From Candidatus Helarchaeota archaeon (GTDB lineage: Archaea > Asgardarchaeota > Lokiarchaeia > Helarchaeales > RDOG01): a DNA stretch of 64,000 bases. This document shows, in pieces, positions 13,617-30,687 of the stretch (positions are counted from its first letter, which is position 1; every line of letters starts with the position of its first letter). Location: NCBI GenBank assembly GCA_019058315.1, contig JAHPZH010000002.1, forward strand, positions 352,001-416,000, read 5' to 3'. The translations under genes were made by a program, and so were the position numbers. The notes beneath the pieces were generated by a model. That model was not told the origin of the DNA. It ran no database searches and was given only the letters and a program-made list of their open reading frames with translations.

Positions 13617-14828
13617 TTATATTATAAGTTCATTAACTAATTCTACAATGTCCTTAAATACTAATTTTGATCCGCTTTCTTTAATTGCATCCATTAGATT
13701 ACGTTGACAGAATGGACATGATGAAACTAAAATTTCCGCACCAGTGTCTTCAGCTTCTTTTATTCGGTCGATTGCAGTTTCTAAAGCCATATCTTTAAAT
13801 GCAGCCTTCACACCACCACCAGCACCGCAGCACCAAGCATTTTCCTGATTTCTTACCATTTCAACAAGCTTCAGTCCAGGAATGGCTTTTAAAATCCTTC
13901 TAGGCTGTTTATAAAGACCTCTACGCCTCGGCCTTGAATCGGACATTATACCTCTACCGATATGACAAGGGTCGTGGTAAGTAACCGTCTTATTTAATTC
14001 CTTAAGTTTTATCTTTCCATCTTTAATCAGTCTGTCTAGAAACTGTGTTATATGTATCAATTCAATATCTAATTTCTCTCCCAATAACTCAGGATAGTCA
14101 ACTAAAATAGTTCGATAACAACCTGCACAAGAAAAAATAAGCTTTTTTATACCTGCTTTTTTTATAGCTTCCATATTCTTTTTTGCTAATTCCATTGCTT
14201 GCTTTTGCATACCAGTTCGTAATAACGGACTTCCACAACAAATTTCTTCAGAACCAAGGATACGAAAGGGAGTATTTGTTTTATTTAAAATTTCTACAGT
14301 ATCTTTTGCAAGCTCTTTTTCTCTATAAGCCGATGTACATCCCACAAAATATGCAAGTTCTGCATTTGGGTCAATTTTTACATCTTTTGATAGCCAATCA
14401 AATCGTTGTCCATGTGGGTCTCCATAAGGGTTATTATTTTCAGCAGTACTCTTTGCAAAACCTAGATGTTGGGGCATAGGTCCCCATTCCATTTCTGCTA
14501 GCTTAGTCCTTAATGCTTCAATTATAGCAACATTATCCATACCTTTGAATTCTTTACAAGTAAGTGCACATGCACCGCAAGTGGTGCAAGCCCAAACAAG
14601 CTCTTTTAATGCTTCTGATGGTTCTTTTATTTCACCCTCGATGATAGCTCTCGCAATTTCCATACGTCCAACTGCATAATATGAGATAAAACCAAATTTT
14701 TTACCGCTTGGGCAACATTCTAGCCATTCATCTAGTGTCCAGTAATTAAATTGGTTACAGCCCATACAATGACCGCATGTTATAACATCATCTCTATATT
14801 CATCTAATTTTTTAACTTTTATTGTCAT
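13617..14828 (-). CDS. HdrD/GlpC-like Fe-S oxidoreductase with two CCG domains
   Basis: CGHCMGC...CP and CTTCGACALTC; 'FVGC', 'CCGSP', 'CAGC', 'YHDPCH', 'CCGAGGG', 'SCPFC'. Confidence 0.9.
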   Translation of the reverse strand: MTIKVKKLDEYRDDVITCGHCMGCNQFNYWTLDEWLECCPSGKKFGFISYYAVGRMEIARAIIEGEIKEPSEALKELVWACTTCGACALTCKEFKGMDNVAIIEALRTKLAEMEWGPMPQHLGFAKSTAENNNPYGDPHGQRFDWLSKDVKIDPNAELAYFVGCTSAYREKELAKDTVEILNKTNTPFRILGSEEICCGSPLLRTGMQKQAMELAKKNMEAIKKAGIKKLIFSCAGCYRTILVDYPELLGEKLDIELIHITQFLDRLIKDGKIKLKELNKTVTYHDPCHIGRGIMSDSRPRRRGLYKQPRRILKAIPGLKLVEMVRNQENAWCCGAGGGVKAAFKDMALETAIDRIKEAEDTGAEILVSSCPFCQRNLMDAIKESGSKLVFKDIVELVNELII

Positions 14829-14829
14829 T

Positions 14830-16290
14830 TTACCAAGTCAACTCCTTTTCCTCTGGAAATACTTTTCCTGGGTTCATTATTTCATTTGGATCAATTAACT
14901 TCATGATCTTGTGCCAAATTTCACCGTAAGTTCCTAATTCGTTGATTATCAATTTCATAGGATTTAAGAACGGTCTGAACCAGCCATAGATATGATATTC
15001 CTTAGTAATTAATTTTTTCAAAACGGCGTAATGGAAATTCTTGACCATTTCAACAGATTTCGGGTCTGCGCTAGTATAAGGGACTTCTGCCTCATAGTAG
15101 CAAGCTTGACCCCAAAAACCCGCAATAGGGGCATTTAATAAATCGACATTTTTTGCTTCGTATCCTGCTTTCACTCCAAGTTCTTTCATCATAGGTACAT
15201 ATTTGGGATATTGATATAAAGGACCTAAGAAAGCTAAAGCATGATAAGAACCCTCTCTTAAGAACCCAAAGATGTTACGAGGATATTTAAATTCCCTTGC
15301 TTGTTCTTCTGGAAGGGGAATGGCATTTGCCTTGTTTAAAGGCGATGATGTTTTATTTATAATCTCAAGTGCTAATTCTTTTTTGGCATCAACGATTTTT
15401 TGATGCCCTTCAATTACAATTGGAATTGTCCATTCTGGAAATGATCCACGCATCGACTCTAGGTCTTTTCTTGATCTTGCAAACAATTTAATTATGGTAT
15501 ATTGTGGTAAAATCCACAAAAGTGCTGGTATTTTATTCCACATGAGTTGTGGGACGGGTTTGATAGCTTCTTCGATTGAATTAAAACCAATACCTATAAA
15601 GGCTTCTGCTTCAGGGAGTGGGTAGAGTTTAACAGTCATTTCAGTGCATATTGCCATACTACCAGGCATACTTTGAAAGAGTCCTACAAAATCTGGGCTA
15701 CATGTGAATCTAAAGTGAGGTGGTGCATTAGGAAAAGCTACGGCACCTGTCTTCAAAATTCTGCCATCTGGAAGGACGAACTCAGCAGAACAGACGTGAT
15801 CAATACCATCTCCAGCATTTGTATGATAGACACCTCTTAATAAGTAGTTTGCAAGCAATGAGCCTGTTGCAGGAGCACCGGGAATACATGGACGCATACC
15901 ATATTTCCGAACTGCGATAGCCACTTGTCCATGAGTCACTCCTGGCTGAATGGTGGCTGTCATCATATCATGATTTATTTCAAGAATCTTGTTCATTCTT
16001 CTCATATCAAGCAAAATACTTCCATCTTTAGCTGGTGTACATAATCCTCTTACGTTTACACCGCGACTTAAAGGAACTACAGGAATCTTATTTTGATTAG
16101 CGAATTTTACTATTTCTTGAATTTCTTCTGTTGAAATTGGACGTACTATGACCGCAGGACGCTTTGGTACTACAAAAGGCCAATGCTGATCTCTGCTATA
16201 AGGTATTAACACTGCTTCTTCGTCTGAAACATGTTGATCTCCGACAATTTTTACTAAATTATCAACTAAACTTGCCAAATTTATACACAA
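14830..16290 (-). CDS. FAD-binding oxidoreductase (GlcD/D-lactate dehydrogenase, VAO family)
   Basis: 'PAVIVRPISTEEIQEIVKFA', 'LLDMRRMNKILE', 'QPGVT', C-terminal 'DPNEIMNPGK'; 1 nt from the CCG gene. True start may be the TTG at 16278. Confidence 0.88.
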   Translation of the reverse strand: MCINLASLVDNLVKIVGDQHVSDEEAVLIPYSRDQHWPFVVPKRPAVIVRPISTEEIQEIVKFANQNKIPVVPLSRGVNVRGLCTPAKDGSILLDMRRMNKILEINHDMMTATIQPGVTHGQVAIAVRKYGMRPCIPGAPATGSLLANYLLRGVYHTNAGDGIDHVCSAEFVLPDGRILKTGAVAFPNAPPHFRFTCSPDFVGLFQSMPGSMAICTEMTVKLYPLPEAEAFIGIGFNSIEEAIKPVPQLMWNKIPALLWILPQYTIIKLFARSRKDLESMRGSFPEWTIPIVIEGHQKIVDAKKELALEIINKTSSPLNKANAIPLPEEQAREFKYPRNIFGFLREGSYHALAFLGPLYQYPKYVPMMKELGVKAGYEAKNVDLLNAPIAGFWGQACYYEAEVPYTSADPKSVEMVKNFHYAVLKKLITKEYHIYGWFRPFLNPMKLIINELGTYGEIWHKIMKLIDPNEIMNPGKVFPEEKELTW

Positions 16291-16383
16291 TCCATTTTTT
16301 TATTGTATTTTTCTTTTATTTCTGAAAAAAACAGATTTTGATTATTGTTAAGTTATCCTTAGAAAATATAGATAAAAATTAAA

Positions 16384-16400
16384 ATGTCGAAATTCGATAT
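16384..16400. promoter_or_regulatory. Palindromic operator candidate ATGTC-GAAATTC-GATAT between the redox cluster and padR
   Basis: Near-perfect inverted repeat (ATGTCGAA-A-TTCGATAT) 22 nt upstream of the padR ORF; same spacing as the sites at 21291 and 24263. Confidence 0.6.
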
Positions 16401-16422
16401 TAATAATATAAGATACTAATGA

Positions 16423-17256
16423 GTGTTAATTATGTTTAAAAAAAAGCACAAAAGAGCACCAGTCAATAATTTTCAACTACAAATCCTAAGATTATTAAGA
16501 TATAGACCCATGTATGGGTATGAAATTTTAAATATATTCGAACAAAAAGGGTGGAGACCAAGTACAGGGACGTTATACCCTGCCTTAAAACAATTGGAAA
16601 AAAAAGAATTTATAGAATCATATAAAACTGAAGATCAAATACGTGGAGCCAACCCACGCACTAATTATAAATTAACAAAAAAAGGATTCGATTATGTCCA
16701 GACTACTTTTAATATTGATATAAGGCATCCTGAGCTCTATATTGAACCATTTATAGAATTACAGAATATGTATCTCAATGAAATATTTCGAGCCAAAGCT
16801 CTAGTGCTTGATTTTTTAAATTTCATTAATCCAGAAAATGTATTTAAAACCATGGCGGCTGGAAAAGTTCCTTCAAATATTGAATTTAAGAAAGTATACG
16901 ATTTTAACCTTGAGAATCCAAAATCTAAACTTTATGATTATATCGTATTATTTCTACCATTTTCATTTACTTTTCAAGATTTTTATAGTAATCCTGCTCG
17001 AAACCACCTAAAAGTTTTAAAAGATGTTAAATTAGCATTGAAACCAGATGGAGGCATTTTAATTATAGATATTGAATGGACTAAACATGCTCTTGTAGAT
17101 GTTTTAAGTTTTATGGCTACGGGTGAAGTAATGGAAATGGCTTACACAGAAGAACAAATAAAAACACTTTTAACAAATTCTGGATATGTTAACATTAATA
17201 TATTGAAGAAACAACGAGGAATAATAATAATATTGGCTGATAATAAATCTAATTAA
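16423..17256 (+). CDS. PadR-family transcriptional regulator with C-terminal degenerate methyltransferase-like domain
   Basis: 'ILRLL..PMYGYEIL', 'PSTGTLYPALKQLEKKEFI', 'YKLTKKG'; C-terminus 'LKVLKDVKLALKPDGGILIIDIE', 'YTEEQIKTLLTNSGY' without a GxGxG motif. Confidence 0.85.
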   Translation: MLIMFKKKHKRAPVNNFQLQILRLLRYRPMYGYEILNIFEQKGWRPSTGTLYPALKQLEKKEFIESYKTEDQIRGANPRTNYKLTKKGFDYVQTTFNIDIRHPELYIEPFIELQNMYLNEIFRAKALVLDFLNFINPENVFKTMAAGKVPSNIEFKKVYDFNLENPKSKLYDYIVLFLPFSFTFQDFYSNPARNHLKVLKDVKLALKPDGGILIIDIEWTKHALVDVLSFMATGEVMEMAYTEEQIKTLLTNSGYVNINILKKQRGIIIILADNKSN

Positions 17257-18916: not shown

Positions 18917-19714
18917 ATGCAAATCAATTTCGAATATGGGGTTTTTTTCACGCTGAATAAAATAACTGGCTTTTCAATTTTTACAGATCCGTTGAATCTT
19001 TTCCAATTGCTAATATTATTGTCTGCAATGATATTTGGGATTTATGTTCTACATATTATATGGAAAGAATATAAAAGAACGAATAGTACCAATTCATTAA
19101 TCTTCTACGTTGCCGGAGTAATTATGTTAATTTCCGGTATTAGCATAACAACTGCAAAATTATGTTATGCAACGTTCGGGTGGCCTGAAATTGGAAGAAT
19201 ATTTGTTGGAATAAGCTGGGGCATAGCTATTTCAGGAATGATCTTTTATAATATATTTGCTTTACGTTCCACATTTCCAAAAAGGGTTAATGTATTAACT
19301 TCAATTATTATAGCAATATCATTTCTTTGTATATTAGTTCTGAATTATGCTATTTATATAGAACCGCCATTAGTATACACTGATCCAATTGATTTTGAAG
19401 ATCGATTCAGCTTAATAGTTTTATTGGTAATTTATTGCACTTTTATACCTGTTTCATTACTTCCTCCTTTGGTTTTTTCCTATTATTCAATAAAAATAAG
19501 AAATGAAGATAGAGCAAAAAGTAATTTGGCAATTTTCTTTGTAATAGGACTTCTTTGTATAGCTCTGGGTGTAATAAATGAGATAGGGCTTATTTATATC
19601 TTTATATTAGAAGTTATTTTCCGGTTCTTTATCTTGGCATATCCTATAGTGTTTTATTTTATCTTTGCTATGCCTGATTGGTTCAGAGAAAAACTTGGAT
19701 TAAAAAAAGAGTAA
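18917..19714 (+). CDS. Seven-transmembrane protein of unknown function
   Basis: About seven hydrophobic helices with short loops; ends 'FAMPDWFREKLG'. Confidence 0.7.
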   Translation: MQINFEYGVFFTLNKITGFSIFTDPLNLFQLLILLSAMIFGIYVLHIIWKEYKRTNSTNSLIFYVAGVIMLISGISITTAKLCYATFGWPEIGRIFVGISWGIAISGMIFYNIFALRSTFPKRVNVLTSIIIAISFLCILVLNYAIYIEPPLVYTDPIDFEDRFSLIVLLVIYCTFIPVSLLPPLVFSYYSIKIRNEDRAKSNLAIFFVIGLLCIALGVINEIGLIYIFILEVIFRFFILAYPIVFYFIFAMPDWFREKLGLKKE

Positions 19715-19892: not shown

Positions 19893-21185
19893 ATGACAGA
19901 AAAGGTAGATCATTATCCTATGTGGAAAAATTTAGGTCTTGATCTTGAAAAACATGATCAATTATTAGCAATATTGCCTGATATTTACAAAAAAATTTAT
20001 ATCGAGACTCAAAAAAATCGTCCCGACATGAGTTTCTGGGACTTTGTTGTCGGAGATATACATGGAATTAGAATCAAAGAATTAAAAGAAGCAAAAGAAA
20101 AAGGTCAAAAAATTCTAGGTACATTTTGCCTTTATGTTCCAGATGAATTAATATTTGCAGTTAATGCAATTTCGGTAGGGCTTTGTGGGGGAACGAATTT
20201 CTCTAATTATGCTGCAGAAGGAATAGTTCCACCAAACCTTTGTCCATTAATAAAATCTGCCTTAGGTTTTGCTCTAGGAAATATTTGTCCCTATTTCAAT
20301 TCTCTAAACTTATTGGTTGGAGAAACAACATGTGATGGAAAGAAAAAAGCTTGGGAAGTTATGGAAAAATATTTCCCTTGTGAGTTATATGTTGTGGAAA
20401 TTCCCCAATGCAAAGACCGACCACAAGCAAGAGAGCATTGGATTGCAGAACTAAAAGCATTAGTTAAAAAGTTGGAAAATCTGACTAGTAATAAACTTAC
20501 GTTTGAGAATCTAAAAGCGGCAATGGAAAAAATAGAAAATAAAAGAAATCAAATTAGAAGAGTTTATCAAGCAAGAAAAGCCGATCCTCCTCCTATATCT
20601 GGAAAAGACGCCCTTTTAGTATCACAAGTTGCGTTCTATGATGATCCCGATAGAGAAATTCAAATGGTTGGGAAGCTTGCAGATGAATTGGAAAAGAGAA
20701 TAAGAGATGGGGTTGGTGTAGTTAAAAAAAGTACTAAAAGAATTTTGATTTCTGGAACTCCTATGGCGATACCAAACTGGAAATTACATCAAATAATAGA
20801 AACTAGTGGGGCTATTGTGGTTTGCGAAGAAACTTGCACTGGAACAAGATATTTTGACGCTAAACTGGAAATTACTGGAAAAACGTTAGAAGGATTGATC
20901 GGAAATTTGGCTGAGAGGTATTTAAATATTAATTGTGCTTGTTTCACTCCTAATGAAGCAAGAACTGAGGATATAAAAAGACTTGTAAAAGAATACAAAG
21001 CCGATGGTGTAGTTCTATATTCATTATCATTCTGTCAGCCTTATATAATCGAATCAATCGCCATTGAAAAAAAATTAAAAGAAATAGGAATCCCAACAAT
21101 CTCAATTGAAACCGATTACTCAAGCGAAGATGAGGGACAATTAAAGACCCGAATAGAAGCATTCCTAGAAATGATTAAAAAATAA
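19893..21185 (+). CDS. Double-cubane-cluster reductase (DCCP)-like member of the 2-hydroxyacyl-CoA dehydratase family
   Basis: 'HGIRIKEL', 'GTFCLYVP', 'GLCGG', 'LCPLIKS', 'CPYF', 'GETTCDGKKK', 'EETCTG', 'NCACFTPN', 'FCQPY', 'ETDYS..D.GQLKTRIEAF'. Confidence 0.82.
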   Translation: MTEKVDHYPMWKNLGLDLEKHDQLLAILPDIYKKIYIETQKNRPDMSFWDFVVGDIHGIRIKELKEAKEKGQKILGTFCLYVPDELIFAVNAISVGLCGGTNFSNYAAEGIVPPNLCPLIKSALGFALGNICPYFNSLNLLVGETTCDGKKKAWEVMEKYFPCELYVVEIPQCKDRPQAREHWIAELKALVKKLENLTSNKLTFENLKAAMEKIENKRNQIRRVYQARKADPPPISGKDALLVSQVAFYDDPDREIQMVGKLADELEKRIRDGVGVVKKSTKRILISGTPMAIPNWKLHQIIETSGAIVVCEETCTGTRYFDAKLEITGKTLEGLIGNLAERYLNINCACFTPNEARTEDIKRLVKEYKADGVVLYSLSFCQPYIIESIAIEKKLKEIGIPTISIETDYSSEDEGQLKTRIEAFLEMIKK

Positions 21186-21290
21186 AATTATTATTTTTTT
21201 TCTAATTTTTCTAATATTTCTTGTTCAGTAAAAACAAATTTATCTGGAATCTTATTTTTCTGTTTCCTATTTTTTAGATTATTGTGTTTT

Positions 21291-21307
21291 ATATCTTAAT
21301 TTGACAT
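21291..21307. promoter_or_regulatory. Palindromic operator candidate ATATC-TTAATTT-GACAT
   Basis: TTATATC-N7-GACATAA about 107 nt upstream of the ORF at 21415. Confidence 0.5.
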
Positions 21308-21414
21308 AAATTTTTAAAAATTTAGAAATAATTCAAGAATTGTTAATAATTTGAGTTATATCTAAAATTTACTAATATTTTAAAATTCTAAATTATTCAA
21401 AATCAATATTTAAG

Positions 21415-22665
21415 GTGTTTTTATTGGCTTGGCATGAAAAGGTAAAAGAAATAAAAGAAAGAAGACTTAAGGAATTGGAAGGTGTTGATATAAAAAGTAT
21501 ACTAGCCGCTGGTGATAAAGAAATTTATAATACAATCCCAGATAGTGTATTTTCCAAACCTTATCTACCTTTATGTACACAAGTTTGGAAATTTTTTAAG
21601 TATATGGATTGGCATTACTTTGATAGTATCTATGCCGATTTTGCAGAAGCATGCCTTGATGAACTAGTTTTGCGGATGGAGGAAGCAATTGAGGTCTCTA
21701 AAGCTTACTCAGAAGGTAAATTGAAAGATCCTAAGAAAACAATATGTTATTGGATTTTACCACCAGTTCTAGTTGTCAGGGCAGATTTAATACAGGGTGC
21801 GATCAGGCTTGTGTATGGAAACTCGGCTGATATAACCTTCATGGGTGTCTCAGACTTCGATAAAGAAGTTCTTTTTGGAATAAACTTTCATTTCGAAAAT
21901 GGGCTTGCAACAAACTATTGGTATATGAAACCTGGTGATGAATTTCTCGATAAACGGCATATGAAACTGGGAACTAAACTTAAAGATTTGCCAAAAGAAA
22001 TACCCGACTTTCATGAAGCAGCAGGTAAAATCCGTGATATTTTATTAGATGTAAGAAATATTCAAGATCCTAATCATGCTCAATCTGCATACAATGTATG
22101 TTTATTTTTAATGTCAGCAGGTCCAAATAATGGTGTTTTTGTAAGTAATTTCGATGAATACAGCTTCATGTGGGAGGGAATTAACAGTTATAAATTGAAT
22201 GAGGAATGTAAAACTGACATTTTAAAAGACACTATCCAATTTTATGAGCCATGGCCACCAATTTTCCTTCAGCTTACCCGTTTAAAAAGAGATCTCTGGA
22301 TAAAACGGATTTCAGGTCTTCTAATTGACAAACAACTCTATTGTCAATACGTATTGAACAAGAAACTCTTTGATATTTTACCAGTAAAAGAAGTACTTGA
22401 AAAAGATTGGGAAGAAGGTGTTCCTACTCCCGCTCAAACTATTGCCCATGAATTCTCAGATTATAAAAATTGGCGATTTGGTTATAAATTACCAGAAGGA
22501 CCTCGTATTCACTATGAAGATTTCGGTTTATCTCTTAAAGAAGCTATGGGAGGTTTTTTAACAGATATAACTTGGCAAACTGAACCACCCTTTACAAGAG
22601 ATAATTTAATTTCCATTGGTCATGGATTAAATACAAAAATTATAAAAAAGGATGAAGAGACTTAA
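21415..22665 (+). CDS. Hypothetical protein, paralog of 22918..24084 (acr-associated unknown family)
   Basis: Long ORF; shares PPVLxVRxDL, YGNSxDITF, RHMKLG, DILxDVRN, SAY, EEGVPTP with its neighbour. Confidence 0.85.
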   Translation: MFLLAWHEKVKEIKERRLKELEGVDIKSILAAGDKEIYNTIPDSVFSKPYLPLCTQVWKFFKYMDWHYFDSIYADFAEACLDELVLRMEEAIEVSKAYSEGKLKDPKKTICYWILPPVLVVRADLIQGAIRLVYGNSADITFMGVSDFDKEVLFGINFHFENGLATNYWYMKPGDEFLDKRHMKLGTKLKDLPKEIPDFHEAAGKIRDILLDVRNIQDPNHAQSAYNVCLFLMSAGPNNGVFVSNFDEYSFMWEGINSYKLNEECKTDILKDTIQFYEPWPPIFLQLTRLKRDLWIKRISGLLIDKQLYCQYVLNKKLFDILPVKEVLEKDWEEGVPTPAQTIAHEFSDYKNWRFGYKLPEGPRIHYEDFGLSLKEAMGGFLTDITWQTEPPFTRDNLISIGHGLNTKIIKKDEET

Positions 22666-22917
22666 TTTTTTTCAGGTATTATTCTGTAATAATCCTTCTA
22701 GCATATATCACAGAATGTAAAATTTATTAATAGAAATTATAATGATAATAAAATTCTTAGGATGAAAAAATATATTTTTTATATAGAGTTTAAATAATAA
22801 GTTTTATTAAATTCAAAAAAACACTATTTAATCAAAATAAAAAATCGAAAGCCACTCACATAAAAAATATAAATTTTAATTAGAATACATAAAAAAAATA
22901 AAAAGGAGATAGTATAA

Positions 22918-24084
22918 TTGACTCATACTTATGGAGAGATACCAGATGACGTTGTGACGAAACGTTTCGTTCCCTTGGCAGAAAATTTATATTCATTATT
23001 TCAGGAACTAGGTTGGGATTATTTCTATGAAGAATTTACAGATAAAGGCACTCAATTTTTCGAGAAAGTCCCAGATTTTTTAAGTGATAAATTTCAAAGG
23101 GCAGTAACGACAGCTAAAAAGGTTATAGACGGATCAATACCAACACCTGAGAATGTATTTACAACATTCTTCTTTCCCCCTGTGTTATATGTACGAACTG
23201 ATCTACAAATGGGCAGTACTAAACTTATCTATGGAAATTCGACTGACATTACATTTATTGTCATGAATGATATGAATTATAATTTGGAACTCTTAATAAA
23301 TGCACACATGGAGGATGGAATTCCAGTAGATTATTGGTTCATTAAAAGTGGTGACGAAGTCTTTGATAGAAGACATATGAAGCTTGGTTTTAGACTTGCA
23401 GAGATTCCTTCAAAAACAAAGGACTTTTTCAAAAGTGGGCTTCGTATATTGGATATTTTAAGAGATGTTAGAAATGAACGAAGTCCACAATGGTCCGATT
23501 CTGCATATTCCATGGCAATGAATTGGGCTGGTGGATCAACCAACATGTTCATGGAGTCATCAAGTTACAATGTACTCGGACAACTTTGGGATGGTGTAAA
23601 CGCTAAAAAGGAATATGGTATGCCCGATATGTACTTTGGATACATCCCTTACCCTCCGATATTGAAGATGCTACTATCAATGGGACGTCCAGAGTTCATG
23701 ATAAGAATTGAAGGTTTGCTAAGTCATAATCGCTTATTTATTCATGCATATGAACCTGAACACTATGAATTTATGAAATTCATCTCACCAGAAGCATTAG
23801 AATGGAGCTTTAGGAAAATGAAGGAAGAAGGTGTGCCAACTCCTAGACAGTCTTTAGGTTGCCATGTACCTAAATTAAAAGATAAAAAAACATATAAAAA
23901 TGAAGAGTTCGGATTTGTATACCCCGAAGGAACAAGAATAATGCCTTACGAATGGGGCCTAACAGATGATGAAGCATTCAGCGGAATTTATACCGATATT
24001 TCACATGAAACTCCGTCGGAACCATTTTATGGGAAGGAACATGTAGTCAATATAGGCGTCGGTAAAGACGTGAGACCAATTTAA
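22918..24084 (+). CDS. Hypothetical protein, paralog of 21415..22665 (acr-associated unknown family)
   Basis: TTG start after AGGAG; full-length colinear similarity to the upstream gene. Confidence 0.85.
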   Translation: MTHTYGEIPDDVVTKRFVPLAENLYSLFQELGWDYFYEEFTDKGTQFFEKVPDFLSDKFQRAVTTAKKVIDGSIPTPENVFTTFFFPPVLYVRTDLQMGSTKLIYGNSTDITFIVMNDMNYNLELLINAHMEDGIPVDYWFIKSGDEVFDRRHMKLGFRLAEIPSKTKDFFKSGLRILDILRDVRNERSPQWSDSAYSMAMNWAGGSTNMFMESSSYNVLGQLWDGVNAKKEYGMPDMYFGYIPYPPILKMLLSMGRPEFMIRIEGLLSHNRLFIHAYEPEHYEFMKFISPEALEWSFRKMKEEGVPTPRQSLGCHVPKLKDKKTYKNEEFGFVYPEGTRIMPYEWGLTDDEAFSGIYTDISHETPSEPFYGKEHVVNIGVGKDVRPI

Positions 24085-24262
24085 TTAATTCTATATTTTA
24101 ACAACCAATATTTTTTCTTTTAATTATTTAATTCCTTGGAAGAGGACTTAGTATTTCTTTATTAGGAAAAAGATCTTTTTATTTACTTATCTATTTATTA
24201 AAAAATTTAATAAAATAATAGCTATTTTCTCTTGTCCTAGTTTTTTATCATTTATTTTTATT

Positions 24263-24279
24263 ATGTCTATATTTGACAT
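24263..24279. promoter_or_regulatory. Palindromic operator candidate ATGTC-TATATTT-GACAT upstream of acrA
   Basis: Perfect 7-bp arms TTATGTC-N7-GACATAA (24261..24281), about 134 nt upstream of the acrA ATG. Confidence 0.6.
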
Positions 24280-24413
24280 AAACATTTTTGAAAAAAAAAT
24301 CGTCTAAAGATTAACCAAGATTTAGTTTAATAGTCGGAATTTTCATTTATTATTGTTAAAAAATAATGAAGTTAGAGCAATTTATCTAATTTAAATAATT
24401 TTAAGGCGATTGT

Positions 24414-26213
24414 ATGTCAAAAGAAGGAAAAAAATCTGAGAAAACAATTCGAGAGATAGATTATGGCTATGATCTTTTCTCAATAGCAAAAAAATTTCTT
24501 CCAGTTGAACAGGAACGTGTTGTTTATAAGACAATGCAAAAGGTCTTTGGCGTAAATCCATTAGCTCCTAGAGACAACTCTATGTATCGCAGAGGTGGAT
24601 TTAAACAAAATAAAAGAAAAGTAGAATTCATGAAAGCTGCTAAAAAAATTGCCAAAGAGAGAGGAATTCCCATGTATAATCGTGCAGTCGGAATTCCACT
24701 TGGACAAAGAGCGTTAGAGCCATATCTAATATCTGGTACAGATACTTTTGTTGATTTTGATGATGTTCATCATGTTAATAACGCTGCCATCCAACAGATG
24801 GTAGATGATATTAAAAGAACCGTAATTATCAATCTTGATATTCCACATCGTGTTCTCCAAGTTAGAGCAGGAAAGGAGATTACACCTGAAACTGTAAATC
24901 TTTACTTAGAAACTATTCAGCACACCATGGCAGGAGGTGCTGTAGCCCAAGAGCATATGGCTGAAATAAATCCTGGATTAACATTTGATGGATATGCGAA
25001 GGTAATCACAGGAGATGATGAAATACGGGACATGCTCGACAAGAGATTTTTATTAGATATTGATAATTTATTCCATCCAAGTCGGGTTGAACAATTAAAA
25101 AGAGCAATTGGTAGCACAATGTTTTTACTTGCCCGAGTTCCAACCATAGCGGTTCGGATGGCAGATGGTGGAGTTGTATATCGATGGGCTGCAATGCAAT
25201 CTACTATGGCATTTGTTGCAAGTTACCGATTAACAGGAGAAAGCATTATCTCAGATTTAGCTTATGCTGCAAAAAGTGCACAGCTTGTCCAGATGGGTGA
25301 AAGAACGTGGTTTGCGAGAGCAAGGAGTCAAAATGAAATAGGTGGAATACCATTTGGCTATATGAATGACTTTATGCAATCAGATTCTCGACTTCCAGCA
25401 AAACCGTTCCTAAGGGTCATACATGAAGATGGCGTTGATGTGGCAAGAGAATATATAGGTGCATTAACAAAAGGCCTTGGTGCTATTGGGGCAGTTTTGA
25501 CTGAACAATATTGGTTAAGTTTTTATATGTCTGGAGGTATTGGATTTGCCACCACAGTTGCAAGCGCAGGATATTGTGGTAATGTATTAGAAGAATTCAC
25601 TGACCAAACTACGGAAATTCTTGCAAAATATGGCAAGGTGCTTAAAGTCAAACCAAATTGGGATACAGTCCGTTGGGTTATTGATCTTATTATACAATAT
25701 TGCATGGAGACCTATGAAAAATATCCATCATTGACCGAATATCATTGGGGTGGTGCACATAGAATATCAGTAATTGGGAACCTTTCAGCGACTGTAGCTT
25801 CTTTATTAACAGGCTCTTCAACTTTAGGCTGTATGGCTATGCATTATTCAATAGGTTTGTTAATGAAGGAAGGTTGGTTAAGAACGGGTTGGGCAGGTCA
25901 AGAAGTCCAAGATCACGTGGGTATCGCTTATCTTTGTAGTCCCAGAATAGAGGAAGGAGTCTTTCCAGAACTTAGAGGCATGAATTATCCTGTTGCAAGC
26001 TTTACTGCTGGTCATGCTAGCGGATATATTGGCGCTGCGGCAGGAACTGCTCTTCATAGGGGTCAACCTTGGTCAACTTCTCCTATAGTCAAAGCCGCAT
26101 TTGCAGATCCTCATTTAATATTTGATTTCGCAGAACCAAGGCTAGCAATTGCTAAAGCGTGTTTGAGAGAATTCAAACCCGCAGGTGAACGAGATCTAAT
26201 TATTCCAACATAA
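24414..26213 (+). CDS. mcrA: Methyl/alkyl-coenzyme M reductase alpha subunit, divergent ACR type
   Basis: 'ERGIPMYN', 'GIPLGQR', 'DDVHHVNNAAIQQMVDDIKRT', 'EITPETVNLYLE', 'AVAQEHMAE', 'RARSQNEIGG', 'YMSGGIGF', 'PELRGMNYP', 'AFADP', 'EFKPAGER'. Confidence 0.96.
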   Translation: MSKEGKKSEKTIREIDYGYDLFSIAKKFLPVEQERVVYKTMQKVFGVNPLAPRDNSMYRRGGFKQNKRKVEFMKAAKKIAKERGIPMYNRAVGIPLGQRALEPYLISGTDTFVDFDDVHHVNNAAIQQMVDDIKRTVIINLDIPHRVLQVRAGKEITPETVNLYLETIQHTMAGGAVAQEHMAEINPGLTFDGYAKVITGDDEIRDMLDKRFLLDIDNLFHPSRVEQLKRAIGSTMFLLARVPTIAVRMADGGVVYRWAAMQSTMAFVASYRLTGESIISDLAYAAKSAQLVQMGERTWFARARSQNEIGGIPFGYMNDFMQSDSRLPAKPFLRVIHEDGVDVAREYIGALTKGLGAIGAVLTEQYWLSFYMSGGIGFATTVASAGYCGNVLEEFTDQTTEILAKYGKVLKVKPNWDTVRWVIDLIIQYCMETYEKYPSLTEYHWGGAHRISVIGNLSATVASLLTGSSTLGCMAMHYSIGLLMKEGWLRTGWAGQEVQDHVGIAYLCSPRIEEGVFPELRGMNYPVASFTAGHASGYIGAAAGTALHRGQPWSTSPIVKAAFADPHLIFDFAEPRLAIAKACLREFKPAGERDLIIPT

Positions 26214-26294: not shown

Positions 26295-27896
26295 ATGGAA
26301 GATTTTATTGTTGTTAAAAACCTATTTAAAGAGTTTGAAAGAGGCTCCCCTGCTTATATTGATATAAGCTTTACAATTAAAGAAGGAGCCTCATTTGGTA
26401 TTTTGGGTAAGTCAGGATCTGGAAAAAGTGCTTTAATGCATGCACTTCGTGGCACTCCAGAATATAAACCGACGAAAGGAACAGTCATATATAGGATTTC
26501 TGCATGTCCTAATGATGATTGTCTTTATATCGATTACCCCTCATTAGCAAATTCAAGTTGCCCAAATTGCAACTCAACTTTGGAATTGAAAGAATTCGAT
26601 TTTTGGAAAGAGGCAGAAACTAACTCTCCCCTTTTTCGCGCACTTTATAATCGAATATCAATTATGTTGCAACGTACGTTCGCACTTTACGGAGAACTAC
26701 CCGTATTAGCAAATCTAACTGAGGCTCTAGAAAAAGCAGGCGTTCCTGAAAGACGAAGAGAGGGTAAAGCAGCATTATTACTATCAAAAGTTAATTTAAC
26801 ACACCGTTCAATGCATATTGCCCGTGACTTATCAGGAGGAGAAAAACAACGTGTAGTTTTCGCTATGAGTCTGGCGAAAAATCCACTTCTTTTCCTTGCA
26901 GATGAACCCACTGGAACACTTGATGTAATAACAAGTAAAAAAATCCATAAAACAATGAAGACGGCTGTTAATAAGGATAAACTTACGCTTATTGTGACTT
27001 CACATTGGCCACTTGCCGTTGAAGAATTAACATCAGAAGCAATATTATTAGAGGATGGAAAAATTACGATGCATGCTGATTCTTCTGAAGTGGCTAAGAA
27101 GTTTTTAAGTCAAGTAGAAAAAGTAGAGAGGACAAAAAGAGAGTTTAAAAATAAAATTATGAAAGTTGAGAATTGTATTAAACATTATTACACATTTGAT
27201 AGGGGAATTATTAGAGCTGTAGATGGTGTCTCTCTTGATATTTATGAAAATGAGATTTTTGGGCTTGTTGGTCTTTCAGGTTCTGGAAAAACAACTCTGT
27301 CCCTAATGATGTGTGGTTTGAAAGATATTACAATGGGAAAAATCTGGGTCAATATAGGGGATGAATGGGTCGATATGAGCATCCCAGGTCCATATGAACG
27401 TGGTAGAGCTACAAATTATATGGACATTCTTCACCAAGAATATGCTCTCTATCCTCATTTGATAGTTCTACAAAATCTAACTGGGGCAATAGAATATCCG
27501 ATTCCAGAGGAAATGAAAACCAAAAAAGCTTATGACTCATTAAAGGCAGTAAATTTCACAAATGATGAAATTGAAAATATTCTCTATAAATTTCCAGAAC
27601 AAATTAGTGAAGGAGAACGACACCGAGTTGCCATTTCTCGAATTTTAATAAAAGAACCGAAAATTTTGTTTTTTGATGAGGCAACTGGAACTGCAGACCC
27701 ATTAACTCGGATGGAAATAGTACGTTCAATAAAAAAATCCCGTGATGACCTTAATCAAACATATGTCATAATAAGTCATGATATTGATTTTGTCTTAGCT
27801 GCTTGTGATAGAGCAGCATTAATGAAAGATGGTCACGTTTTAAAAGTTGGAGAACCCGCGGAGATCATAGAATATTTTAAAGAGGTAGAGAAATAA
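26295..27896 (+). CDS. atwA: Methyl-CoM reductase system component A2 (tandem ABC ATPase)
   Basis: Two Walker A motifs (GKSGSGKS, GLSGSGKT), Cys insert CPNDDC..CPNC, 'IMLQRTFALY', 'HIARDLSGGEKQR', 'GDEWVDM', 'LHQEY', 'SEGERHRVA'; no TM partner. Confidence 0.93.
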   Translation: MEDFIVVKNLFKEFERGSPAYIDISFTIKEGASFGILGKSGSGKSALMHALRGTPEYKPTKGTVIYRISACPNDDCLYIDYPSLANSSCPNCNSTLELKEFDFWKEAETNSPLFRALYNRISIMLQRTFALYGELPVLANLTEALEKAGVPERRREGKAALLLSKVNLTHRSMHIARDLSGGEKQRVVFAMSLAKNPLLFLADEPTGTLDVITSKKIHKTMKTAVNKDKLTLIVTSHWPLAVEELTSEAILLEDGKITMHADSSEVAKKFLSQVEKVERTKREFKNKIMKVENCIKHYYTFDRGIIRAVDGVSLDIYENEIFGLVGLSGSGKTTLSLMMCGLKDITMGKIWVNIGDEWVDMSIPGPYERGRATNYMDILHQEYALYPHLIVLQNLTGAIEYPIPEEMKTKKAYDSLKAVNFTNDEIENILYKFPEQISEGERHRVAISRILIKEPKILFFDEATGTADPLTRMEIVRSIKKSRDDLNQTYVIISHDIDFVLAACDRAALMKDGHVLKVGEPAEIIEYFKEVEK

Positions 27897-27897
27897 A

Positions 27898-28395
27898 ATG
27901 AAAGATTTAGATTCAGAACTGGAATATGAGTATAAAGAACCTTCAGGAAAATGGTGGGAAGAACTCGAATGGATTTTTCCTCCAGAAGAAGACCGAGAAC
28001 CCACATGTTATGAAATGGTTCAGAGTTTTATTATAAATAAAGTTGTTCCTTGTGCTAAGTGTGTGGAATTATCGGGACGGTTTTTACCTCGTGTAATTAC
28101 CATTGAAGCTGAACACCCGATTCGAGGAAATGAGTACTCACGAATAATTATAAGTCCAGTCGATGTAGCAGACGGAGCTCCAACAGTAGAACCCGACCTC
28201 TTAATCCATATTAAATATTACGACTTGTTAAGAGTATTAGATGGAGAATTAGATATAATGAAACCATTATTTTTTGGAGAAGGCTGGTTAATCGGTAATA
28301 CAACAACTGGTTTTGATTTGAAAGATTTAGTCGATGTAGCAAATGGAAAAGAATTAGTTGAGAGACCTAAAGCTTGGCCAATAGGTCACCCATAG
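27898..28395 (+). CDS. SCP2 (sterol carrier protein 2)-like lipid-binding protein inside the acr operon
   Basis: 'EPDLLIHIKYYDLLRVLDGELDIMKPLFFGEGWLIGN' follows the SCP2 C-terminal pattern (PD-x-x-I...L..G.LD.M.....G....G); 1 nt after atwA, 11 nt before acrB. Confidence 0.65.
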   Translation: MKDLDSELEYEYKEPSGKWWEELEWIFPPEEDREPTCYEMVQSFIINKVVPCAKCVELSGRFLPRVITIEAEHPIRGNEYSRIIISPVDVADGAPTVEPDLLIHIKYYDLLRVLDGELDIMKPLFFGEGWLIGNTTTGFDLKDLVDVANGKELVERPKAWPIGHP

Positions 28396-28406
28396 GAGAG
28401 TTTAAT

Positions 28407-29801
28407 ATGATTAAAGATAAAGTTGACGTTTATAATGATGAGGGTGAATGCATAGGAGAAGATTTACCCATAAAAGCATTCTCTCCCTTATATAATCCGT
28501 ATATGGTAAAAGTTTATAATATGATCAAGAGAACCGCATTTATTTCACTAGAAAAATTAGAACAAAATATACGTAAAGGTCGTTTTGGTGAAATGACAAC
28601 CTTACGTCAGGACGAAATACAGATGCCTCAATTTGAACGGAAATGGAAGCTTGTTGATATGGGGCCTGAAATTGCGGAAAAAATGAATAAAATCATTTCT
28701 ATGGACGAAGGATTTAATGGTAAGGATGATGGTTCGAATGTAGATCTGATAGCGGGTGGTAAAATGCTAAGAGTATCCTTACCACAAAGAAGAATAGATA
28801 TTGCAGCTTCCATTGCCCCACTTTATACAATAACTGGGACTGCACTCGCTCAATCTCTTATTGATCTTCTTGATTTAAACCCAATGAATGATATTGATGG
28901 TTGTAATATAGTAAAAACGGCAATTTTTGGTCGTTTTCCACAAACCAGAGAATTTGGATCTTCATGTCCTATTTTTGCTTTTTGTAAACCTCCTCAATTG
29001 GAAGAAGGCATAGGAACTCTGTTCCGTGGTCTCATGATAAACCATATAGTTGCTTTGTCCAATTTTCGGACTTTCGATGCAGTAGCATTAGCAACTTTAT
29101 TAGAACAAGCAGGACAAACAGAGATGGGAAATGCTATAGGGTGGTATGAGCGCTATAATTTATTGACAACCGCATATCAAGGATTTAATGGAAATAACTT
29201 AGTGTTAGATTTAATTAAAGAATACGGTACTGATGGGACAGTTAGTGATGTTGTACATGGTCTAATTGAAAGATCTTTAAATGATGGGGTTATATATCCT
29301 AAAGGAGATAAATTCCCACACACTCAACCTTCTGGATATAAAATTTATTCAACTAAAGATTATCCGCTTTGGAATGCATATTCATGTGCTGGGTTGTTAG
29401 CTGCTGTTTGTGTAAATGTAGGTGCATCTCGTGCTGCACAAGGTTGTGGCGCAGTAATGTCTAGTTTTAGTGATATTCTTTCATTTGAAACTGGGGGTCT
29501 TCCAGATCCAGATGCTGGAAGGATTTTTGGGACTGCACTCGGTTTTACATTTTATACACATTCAATTTATGGTGGGGCTGGACCTGGGGCTTTTACGATG
29601 GACCATGTTATAACTCGCCATACTAGTGGCTTTTTTACACCATGTGTTGCTGCAGCGATGTGTCTAGATGCAGGAACCCAAATCTTTACTCCAAAATTGA
29701 CTTCTGGAAATTATTTTACGCTTCGAAAAGAAATACCACTGCTCACTGATGTTGTTGTTAAGACCACTGAGGCTGCAAAGGAGATAAAAAATAAATTTTA
29801 A
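28407..29801 (+). CDS. mcrB: Methyl/alkyl-coenzyme M reductase beta subunit
   Basis: 'DKVDVYNDEG', 'SPLYNP', 'FGRFPQT', 'EMGNAIGWYER', 'AYQGFNGNNLV', 'LWNAY', 'HSIYGGAGPG', 'HVITRH', 'LDAGTQ'. Start set to the ATG at 28407 after GGAGAG. Confidence 0.96.
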   Translation: MIKDKVDVYNDEGECIGEDLPIKAFSPLYNPYMVKVYNMIKRTAFISLEKLEQNIRKGRFGEMTTLRQDEIQMPQFERKWKLVDMGPEIAEKMNKIISMDEGFNGKDDGSNVDLIAGGKMLRVSLPQRRIDIAASIAPLYTITGTALAQSLIDLLDLNPMNDIDGCNIVKTAIFGRFPQTREFGSSCPIFAFCKPPQLEEGIGTLFRGLMINHIVALSNFRTFDAVALATLLEQAGQTEMGNAIGWYERYNLLTTAYQGFNGNNLVLDLIKEYGTDGTVSDVVHGLIERSLNDGVIYPKGDKFPHTQPSGYKIYSTKDYPLWNAYSCAGLLAAVCVNVGASRAAQGCGAVMSSFSDILSFETGGLPDPDAGRIFGTALGFTFYTHSIYGGAGPGAFTMDHVITRHTSGFFTPCVAAAMCLDAGTQIFTPKLTSGNYFTLRKEIPLLTDVVVKTTEAAKEIKNKF

Positions 29802-29802
29802 G

Positions 29803-30687
29803 GTGAAAATTATGGAAGAAGATGTTTTTGCAGTTGCAGATATTGAAAAATTCAAGAGAAAGAAAAAGAAAGTAGAAAGAAAAGAAGTAGAGAAAAAAGT
29901 TGAAGTTATAGAGGGTAAATATGAACCTCAATTTTACCCAGGACAAGGTCCGGTATCGGAAAGAAGGCGAAAATTATTAAATAAAAATAAAAAGTTATTG
30001 AAATTACGAAGTATTCCAGATGATGATGTGGTTAAATTACTCGGACATCGTCTACCGGGCAGTTTATATCGTAGTATTCATCCCCCTCTAGACGAATTAA
30101 TCCAAGAATATGATCCTATTAAAATGCTTGTAAAACCTACCCCAGGAGCACGTGCAGGTGATCGTGTCCGCTTTGTCCAATTCACTGATAGTTTTTGGAG
30201 ACCTCCTTTTGCCCCTTGGTTAAGAGCAAGGTATTATTTCAATCGTCTACGAGGTGTGGATACCGTTATTTACTCGGGACGTGAAATTTTAGAAATGAGG
30301 GAACGTGATCTAGAGGCAGCCACAAAAATACTAATTGAAACAGAACTTTTCGATCCAGCTAGAACAGCTCTTAGAGGAATTACTGTTCATGGTAGTTCAT
30401 TGAGATTAGATACTGATGGATTAATGTTTGACGCTCGACGTCGATATGTATTGGATAAAGACGTTAATGAAGTTGTTTATATTAAAGATATGCATGCAAA
30501 GATGTTAGATAAACCTATCCCGGTAGGAAGACCTTTCAACGAAGATGAATTAGTTGAGTTTGACGTGACTTATAGATGGGATGCTTCGATGTATAAATCA
30601 CGTACTGAAATTTTAACAGTAATTAATAGAATTGCAAAAGGTAGATTATTAGCAGGTTTTAGACCAGAATTAGTAAATGATTTTTAA
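29803..30687 (+). CDS. mcrG: Methyl/alkyl-coenzyme M reductase gamma subunit
   Basis: 'PQFYPG', 'LGHRLPG..Y.SIHPPL', 'PTPGARAGDRVRFVQFTDS', 'SGREILEMRERDLE', 'RGITVHG', 'DGLMFD'. The ATG at 29812 (after AGGTGA) is an equally likely start. Confidence 0.95.
   Translation: MKIMEEDVFAVADIEKFKRKKKKVERKEVEKKVEVIEGKYEPQFYPGQGPVSERRRKLLNKNKKLLKLRSIPDDDVVKLLGHRLPGSLYRSIHPPLDELIQEYDPIKMLVKPTPGARAGDRVRFVQFTDSFWRPPFAPWLRARYYFNRLRGVDTVIYSGREILEMRERDLEAATKILIETELFDPARTALRGITVHGSSLRLDTDGLMFDARRRYVLDKDVNEVVYIKDMHAKMLDKPIPVGRPFNEDELVEFDVTYRWDASMYKSRTEILTVINRIAKGRLLAGFRPELVNDF

Follow-up and report, generated by a model that had tools for sequence, protein, structure and literature searches.

What do the two genes lying immediately upstream of acrA in a Helarchaeales genome encode, and what have they to do with the enzyme whose alpha subunit acrA specifies? 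Anaerobic alkane oxidation in archaea begins with an alkyl-coenzyme M reductase (ACR), which forms alkyl-coenzyme M (alkyl-CoM), and the two genes in question, F1 (P0001) and F2 (P0002), are members of a family that we define here and call F. They are located in a stretch of 64,000 nucleotides (hereafter the window) from Candidatus Helarchaeota archaeon (assembly GCA_019058315.1, contig JAHPZH010000002.1, positions 352,001 to 416,000 of the forward strand), which is part of a 5.79 Mb, 12-contig Helarchaeales genome (G000). F is a previously undescribed family, found only in ACR-bearing archaea and usually beside acrA. This linkage is a matter of observation, and from it we infer, with evenly balanced confidence, that F is an ACR-coupled protein that binds or converts alkyl-CoM.

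The pair was first noticed in an original prediction made from the letters of the window, which described two tandem, full-length, colinear but diverged paralogs upstream of acrA. That description is accurate: F1 (21415..22665, plus strand; 416 aa as an open reading frame, ORF) and F2 (22918..24084, plus strand; 388 aa, with a TTG start and GGAG 9 nt upstream of it) are where they were placed, and BLASTP aligns them from end to end (34% identity over 390 columns, E 7e-72). Only the F1 start calls for amendment, the TTG at 21424 being more probable than the GTG at 21415, as it has GGTG 6 nt upstream and matches the start of the ortholog P0005 in a sister metagenome-assembled genome (MAG); the protein would then be 413 aa long. 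The motifs listed by the original prediction (PPVLxVRxDL, YGNSxDITF, NxHxExG, DxRHMKLG, DILxDVRN, SAY and EEGVPTP) can all be seen in the alignment of F1 with F2, and most of them correspond to invariant columns in a 31-sequence alignment of the family.

Members of F are soluble proteins of about 375-580 aa, with no signal peptide or transmembrane anchor seen in the translated sequence. They share the motifs YGxSxD, HxExG, R-H-(M/L)-(K/R)-x-G and DxRNE on an alpha/beta core of about 240 residues; these are present in F1 and F2, except that P0001 and a close ortholog carry Ile rather than Glu at position 216 (VRNI). Among 54 sequences drawn from Helarchaeales and from distant lineages, H159 is found in all 54, E161 and R214 in 53 each and D212 in 52. 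The conserved residues of this set are polar or charged (H159, E161, R181, H182, K/R184, D212, R214, N215, E216, R298 and R364), none of them is a cysteine, and no phosphate-binding motif was recognised by eye in F. Such a pattern fits a catalytic site or one that holds an anionic head group, and does not fit a redox cofactor. The lack of an iron-sulfur (Fe-S) motif and of any recognisable family membership, both claimed at the outset, agree with this absence of conserved cysteines and with the database searches, in which neither P0001 nor P0002 matched Pfam or NCBIfam at E values up to 0.01. These two libraries likewise returned nothing usable for ten distant relatives of F or for ten small neighbouring ORFs, a profile search of PDB sequences gave only a chance match (E 1.3), and a feature search of the ESM atlas yielded no usable match.

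Where, then, is F found? A 31-member profile run against 400 Asgard genomes detected the family in all seven Helarchaeales and in none of the 393 others, and the N-terminal domain of mcrA occurs in the same seven genomes. This co-occurrence is weak evidence when taken alone, because the seven genomes form a single clade. When 1.84 billion cluster representatives were searched exhaustively with HMMER, only 123 relatives were recovered (96 of them below 1e-10), and source names were looked up for about 30 of these clusters as well as for a second, word-indexed search. Homologs carrying Helarchaeota or Promethearchaeota labels were joined by members from Candidatus Hadarchaeales (at least 3 paralogs per MAG), Bathyarchaeota BA2, Ca. 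Methanoliparum LAM-1, Ca. M. thermophilum, Ca. Syntrophoarchaeum butanivorans (SBU_000316), Ca. Alkanophagales, other Syntropharchaeia and one 'Halobacteriota' MAG. The unnamed MAGs excepted, these lineages are all what we take to be known carriers of multi-carbon ACRs; no methanogen, no anaerobic methanotroph (ANME) and no bacterium was found among the named relatives. Two odd labels, Deferrimicrobium and Hodarchaeota, belong to contigs with Helarchaeales-like genes and synteny. On two contigs of the MAG labelled Candidatus Deferrimicrobium (L031 and L041, DATKTP01 contigs; the MAG is a species representative in GTDB), the F genes and their neighbours match those of Helarchaeota Hel_GB_A almost gene for gene, and this MAG is probably mis-binned or mislabelled.

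Between lineages the identity of F proteins is 20-30%. Each of the distant F proteins, searched back against the genome containing the window, matches exactly its 33 paralogs and nothing else. The family is thus not one that is spread widely and without linkage through acr-lacking genomes, for in addition to its confinement to Helarchaeales within the Asgard archaea and to ACR lineages among the named relatives, its proximity to acrA recurs across phyla.

This is shown by the gene neighbourhoods, in which F lies within 3 kb of acrA in six lineages. In Helarchaeales other than that of the window the order is acrA-F-atwA-orf165-acrB-acrG, in which genes stand 14-21 nt apart or overlap by 11 nt and the F genes are 57-61% identical orthologs of F1; a glcD-hdrD pair, sometimes with a PadR gene, stands divergently upstream of this acrA-F operon. 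The glcD-hdrD pair is beside acrA-F at loci L055, L057, L045 and L072, and a PadR gene adjoins acrA both at L055, in other Helarchaeales, and in the sister MAG. A Syntropharchaeia MAG has orf117-F-acrA with a 1-nt gap, and S. butanivorans has F-orf183-acrA(SBU_000314)-orf197. The Alkanophagales arrangement is orf152-F with a convergent acrA 1.3 kb away, and that of Hadarchaeales is acrA-orf194, a CoA-ligase gene on the opposite strand, orf156-F, and then genes for SCP2 and an aldehyde:ferredoxin oxidoreductase (AOR). In Bathyarchaeota BA2, glcD-hdrD-orf152-F is followed by SCP2 and acrA, and the cluster is flanked on one side by mcrC, mcrD and marker-protein genes, on the other by A2 and a B12-radical-SAM gene. 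Methanoliparum carries orf388-F-ferredoxin-AOR, with an acyl-coenzyme A (acyl-CoA) synthetase gene and a second AOR gene downstream, and no acr gene within 10 kb.

Small ORFs of several kinds accompany these genes. In Syntropharchaeia, Alkanophagales and the 'Halobacteriota' MAG, F always has as its direct neighbour a member of an unannotated family of small proteins (about 117-183 aa, 28-43% identity) (L066:9132-9683, L063:9645-9998, L067:7542-8000 and L069:9308-9691). Hadarchaeales have a different small ORF upstream of F, which matches the C-terminal part of the ORF upstream of F in Methanoliparum; orf152 of BA2 is likened to the small-protein family by its size and its position beside F alone. 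We considered whether the small ORFs could be a split-off piece of the Helarchaeales F and rejected this, as the family hidden Markov model does not detect them. Yet another family, orf165, follows acrA in the window, in Helarchaeales, in Hadarchaeales (L061) and in S. butanivorans (L066) at 34-52% identity, including a copy on contig C3 of the window genome (relatives at L015:13590-14096, L061:7406-7990 and L066:11602-12195), and has no match in Pfam, SCP2, McrC and McrD included. The copy in the window is 38-52% identical to the genes downstream of acrA on contig C3, in L061 and in L066.

The proximity of F specifically to the alpha-subunit gene, often with translational coupling, could also be read, in what is the chief rival explanation, as the mark of an ACR-specific factor for the maturation or assembly of AcrA, that is, an apo-AcrA chaperone, a protein that inserts a modified F430, or a partner of A2 in reductive activation, taking over the roles of McrC, McrD or the marker proteins. 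In Helarchaeales F separates acrA from atwA, the gene of the activation ATPase, in an operon that has neither mcrC nor mcrD. This speaks for such a factor, as do one Helarchaeales contig on which an A2-like ABC ATPase and a DUF2112 protein are encoded near an F pair, and the low number of F copies (one to a few) in lineages outside Helarchaeales. We nevertheless consider this unlikely, since 33 paralogs are hard to explain in a genome with three acrA genes, F is absent near most type-II acr operons, and in Methanoliparum the gene sits beside AOR and acyl-CoA synthetase genes rather than near acr. The BA2 locus has F in addition to mcrC, mcrD and the marker-protein genes, so that F is not simply their replacement, and the lack of conserved cysteines leaves no room for an Fe-S role of the McrC/Mmp7 kind.

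In the window genome F1 and acrA are also joined by a shared operator-like palindrome. The copy upstream of F1 (TTATATC-N7-GACATAA; 21289..21309, plus strand) precedes the gene by about 115-125 nt, and the copy upstream of acrA (TTATGTC-N7-GACATAA, with perfect 7-nt arms; 24261..24281, plus strand) by 133 nt. The original prediction had remarked on an operator common to F1 and acrA, and the 21-nt inverted repeat is indeed present just twice in the genome: TTATRTC-N7-GACATAA has two matches in 5.79 Mb, these two, whereas the reversed control pattern has none. Only the genome-wide count of the full palindrome is decisive. Its 12-mer ATTTGACATAAA alone was rejected as a signal, being seen twice within the window against 2.35 expected with one mismatch allowed, which is not significant; the exact 12-mer core is kept upstream of P0005 in the sister MAG. 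In the window genome neither F2 nor either of the other two acr operons is preceded by such a palindrome, and in more distant Helarchaeales it is not clearly conserved in the upstream regions examined. With the palindrome common only to the F1 and acrA promoters, it is well supported that these two units are probably co-regulated, and the neighbouring PadR regulator is possibly the protein that binds it. Another palindrome (ATGTCGA-N-TCGATAT type) is found just upstream of PadR in the window (16383-16403) and in the sister MAG (L072:6090-6110); it differs from the operator of F1 and acrA and may serve autoregulation.

What kind of protein is F? AlphaFold2 models built with family alignments are confident both for the whole protein (predicted local distance difference test, pLDDT, 88; predicted template-modelling score, pTM, 0.87) and for a core of residues 70-310 (pLDDT 90.7, pTM 0.86). 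Neither model had a match in the PDB with Foldseek at E values up to 0.001, and a shape search of the atlas with the whole model gave template-modelling (TM) scores no higher than 0.32. VIA-align ranked SCP2 domains first with both models (Z 6.0-4.9, below the reliability mark of that measure, Z 8; the mark for TM is 0.5), followed by the SCP2-like domains of UbiJ, of an alkylsulfatase and of Eis, and then by LCP enzymes. Foldseek also lists ASKHA and RNase-H-like folds (PilM, FtsA, EutJ and the C-terminal half of UvrC; E 0.007-0.1, TM under 0.25), with no corresponding Pfam match. Taken together with the negative searches in Pfam, NCBIfam, PDB sequences and the ESM atlas, these results give no match of F to a characterised, unrelated family. 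The predicted fold looks like an elaborated alpha/beta core of the type that binds lipid tails, with no demonstrable homolog, and these likenesses serve as leads only. A complex prediction for AcrA with residues 38-416 of F scored 0.00, which is evidence neither way.

The number of F genes in the window genome is striking. Gene calling there (beyond the window, with a simple ORF finder and BLAST clustering) revealed 33 intact, full-length paralogs of 343-447 aa and 29-63% pairwise identity, making F the fifth-largest paralog family of the genome. Three kinds of clustering involve these copies: into tandem pairs among themselves, with a 26-copy membrane family and with acr operons (permutation p < 0.002 for each, in tests that ignore gene-order structure). 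The genome has three acrA genes, and an F pair stands immediately before two of the three operons. In a tree of the family (built quickly with a simple model and containing some long branches), Helarchaeales sequences form one clade against all other lineages (SH-aLRT 95), which places the expansion within the order. F1 is the only sequence of the window genome in a 15-member clade (support 96), every member of which with a known context is embedded in an acrA-F-atwA operon, whereas F2 falls in a four-member clade peculiar to the window genome (support 100) together with the copy that immediately precedes the second acr operon (C3:194202-195356). F1 is the ortholog of the gene between acrA and atwA in other Helarchaeales and has moved just upstream of acrA in the window genome. 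The sister MAG carries 93% identical orthologs of F1 (P0005) and F2, with a major facilitator superfamily (MFS) transporter gene between them.

The membrane family that accompanies F consists of 26 paralogs (about 258 aa, about seven hydrophobic helices, no Pfam match) and is found at 7 of the 33 F loci against 1.1 expected; on contig C1, from 333564 onward, four of its copies follow an F gene directly in tandem. Other large families of the genome, as seen by BLAST clustering and phmmer, are about 43 HdrD-like CCG proteins, 29 GlcD-like flavin adenine dinucleotide (FAD) oxidases, 24 double-cubane reductases (HGD-D family), 15 AORs, about 24 AMP-forming ligases and 19 MFS transporters.

Dispersed copies in such number, along with the weak Foldseek matches to ASKHA, the C-terminal half of UvrC, EndoV and PIWI, might suggest a selfish or mobile-element gene, for example a transposase or nuclease of RNase-H fold. 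We reject this idea, which is highly improbable: the paralogs are divergent, unlike the near-identical copies of active insertion sequences, all 33 are intact, and the orthologs hold their operon position across Helarchaeales families, while a Pfam match to a transposase or nuclease is absent and the structural matches concerned are all under a TM of 0.3.

The scatter of the copies bears on a further alternative as well. Most of those in Helarchaeales are dispersed and seemingly monocistronic, next to varying neighbours (MFS transporters, aminotransferases, the seven-helix membrane family), as might be expected of a general protein for binding or handling hydrophobic ligands during uptake, solubilisation or detoxification, which would have no specific role in ACR metabolism and would have come to lie near acrA by co-transfer of an island. 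The weak resemblance to SCP2 and LCP folds and the SCP2 genes nearby in Hadarchaeales and BA2 are compatible with such a protein, but among the matches from 1.84 billion representatives there is no named ACR-free lineage, and other anaerobic degraders of hydrocarbons or lipids, many though they are, do not appear among the named matches. Tight embedding in the operon has been kept across Helarchaeales families, the acrA promoter is the only other place where the operator occurs, and the strongly conserved charged cluster exceeds what a plain lipid carrier needs. We judge a general binder improbable.

The reading of F as a protein that binds or converts alkyl-CoM is favoured because the expansion of the family, along with some of its neighbours (AOR, acyl-CoA synthetase, SCP2, GlcD/HdrD), points to a position downstream of ACR, because the conserved cluster of charges suits an anionic head group, and because the best fold matches, weak as they are, all involve domains that bind lipids. 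F would bind what ACR produces, an amphipathic molecule made of an alkyl chain and an anionic CoM head group, in a lipid-binding-type alpha/beta core lined by H159-x-E161, R181-H182 and D212-x-R214-N215-E216, and would hand it over or convert it toward a route through aldehyde, acid and acyl-CoA. The expansion of F alongside large AOR, acyl-CoA synthetase and GlcD/HdrD families suggests diversification over many hydrophobic substrates. The original prediction of an ACR-pathway enzyme or a hydrophobic-substrate binder thus stands with regard to the association, which is well supported, while the biochemical role is one that we infer; its suggestion that F1 and F2 divide substrates by chain length is too narrow, because only 4 of the 33 paralogs are next to acr operons.

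A more explicit version can be proposed from the arrangement glcD-hdrD-orf152-F in BA2 and from the glcD-hdrD pair next to acrA-F in Helarchaeales, which make GlcD-like and HdrD-like proteins candidate partners of F. F might be the substrate-binding or catalytic part of a system that cleaves the thioether of alkyl-CoM with these partners, by oxidation at C1 to a hemithioacetal that releases CoM-SH and an aldehyde, from which the tungsten AOR and the acyl-CoA synthetase encoded nearby (in Hadarchaeales and Methanoliparum) would make acyl-CoA. The 33 Helarchaeales paralogs would then be variants for different hydrophobic thioethers or chain lengths. We offer this version as a doubtful but specific proposal.

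Several observations weigh against a role of F in handling alkyl-CoM. The third acr operon of the window genome has no F within 17 kb, 29 of the 33 paralogs there are not near acr genes, and most type-II operons (acrB-acrG-acrA-orf165) of other Helarchaeales have no F on their contig. Genome-wide, the association of F with AOR does not reach significance (p = 0.054), and GlcD and HdrD are not among the families enriched next to F in the window genome. The structural matches are all under the reliability marks (Z under 8, TM under 0.5), and Foldseek weakly ranks RNase-H-like and ASKHA folds instead of lipid-binding ones. Taxon names cover only about 30 of the 123 clusters. Finally, ACR genes are thought to move horizontally, so that the lineages are not independent samples and F could simply travel with the island.

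The remaining genes of the locus are arranged as follows. On the plus strand the order is PadR (16423..17256; Pfam PadR, 1.3e-16), a 460-aa beta-propeller protein, a 265-aa polytopic membrane protein (18917-19714; one of the 26 paralogs of the membrane family that accompanies F), a double-cubane-cluster reductase (19893-21185; NF040772, 2.6e-142), F1, F2, acrA (24414..26213; mcrA-type alpha subunit, Pfam MCR_alpha_N 3.9e-101 and MCR_alpha 4e-24), atwA (26295..27896; component A2 ATPase, TIGR03269 4.3e-202), orf165 (27898..28395; an unannotated family), acrB (28374..29801; beta subunit, Pfam MCR_beta and MCR_beta_N), acrG (29803..30687; gamma subunit, TIGR03259 2.7e-83) and a reductive-dehalogenase/QueG-like Fe-S protein. 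The minus strand carries genes for a GlcD-like FAD oxidase (14830-16290) and an HdrD-like CCG/Fe-S protein (13617-14828), both identified by BLAST clustering with Pfam on representatives. Searches with Pfam and NCBIfam found neither mcrC nor mcrD in the acr operon of the window. The sequence has oligo-T tracts after F1, F2 and the upstream double-cubane gene, and gaps of 229-329 nt separate F1 and F2 from their neighbours; on account of these tracts and this spacing, F1 and F2 look like separate transcription units in the window genome. The double-cubane reductase gene is directly 5' of F1 in the sister MAG also, and no activator gene of the BcrAD/HgdC type adjoins it. Elsewhere in the genome, contig C3 has a single ORF of about 41 kb on the minus strand (1001344-1042554; about 13,700 aa).

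How alkyl-CoM, a thioether, is turned into acyl-CoA has been an open question since 2016, and F is a concrete, unannotated candidate for a part in it. Published work still calls this step unknown, and a dedicated comparison of genomes, in which 9 alkane oxidisers were set against 12 ANME, reported no candidate (PMC10322722, PMC11297162, PMC10811742, PMC11543930). The 20-30% identity between lineages may explain how screens based on clustering would split the family and miss it. In the literature, searched also with the locus tags and accessions of the S. butanivorans, Methanoliparum and BA2 homologs, no paper mentioning a member of F was found, and SBU_000316 does not occur in the part of the PMC11543930 supplementary tables that was examined. 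Cultured or enriched organisms are among those that have F: S. butanivorans carries it (SBU_000316), as do Methanoliparum and MAGs from the orders to which the Alkanophaga and Hadarchaeota enrichment cultures belong. As omics data exist for several such cultures and alkyl-CoM standards have been synthesised, the question is directly testable. Whatever its function, F is a new metagenome marker for ACR-based metabolism, and in an Asgard archaeon it represents a striking lineage-specific expansion.

How does F compare with known systems? Like McrC, McrD and the marker proteins, F is found inside or beside a reductase operon and is restricted to lineages with the reductase. It differs from them in size, in having no match to McrC (PF04609), McrD (PF02505) or the marker proteins in Pfam or NCBIfam at E values up to 0.01, in its lack of Cys motifs, in its massive paralog expansion, and in its coexistence with mcrC and mcrD in BA2. 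The comparison with SCP2 (PF02036), which takes in the SCP2-like domains of alkylsulfatases (YjcS/SdsA1), UbiJ and Eis, is one of shape and context: residues 70-310 of P0001 cover 106-116 of the 111-130 residues of SCP2 domains with a root-mean-square deviation (rmsd) of 3.1-3.9 Å, the six top rows are all SCP2, SCP2 genes adjoin F in Hadarchaeales and BA2, and a role in binding hydrophobic chains would fit this context. However, there is no sequence similarity between the two (at E values up to 0.01 Pfam matches neither P0001 and P0002 nor any of ten distant relatives), the core of F is twice as large as SCP2 and bears large insertions, along with additional regions at the N and C termini, and its invariant charged cluster is absent from SCP2. 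LCP enzymes (PF03816) and DUF4012 (PF13196) show no sequence match to F either, their motifs differ, the TM scores are under 0.5 and F is cytoplasmic, so that homology is not established. The likeness in shape consists of a superposition of P0001 residues of about 131-306 on an archaeal DUF4012 model (TM 0.47/0.48, 139 residues, rmsd 3.2 Å), of VIA-align matches to LCP crystal structures (Z 4.6-3.4), and of Foldseek probabilities of 0.5-0.8 with E values above 0.01. LCP enzymes keep a lipid tail in a tunnel and use conserved Arg and Asp residues to hold an anionic head group, and this is the architecture that a protein binding alkyl-CoM would need.

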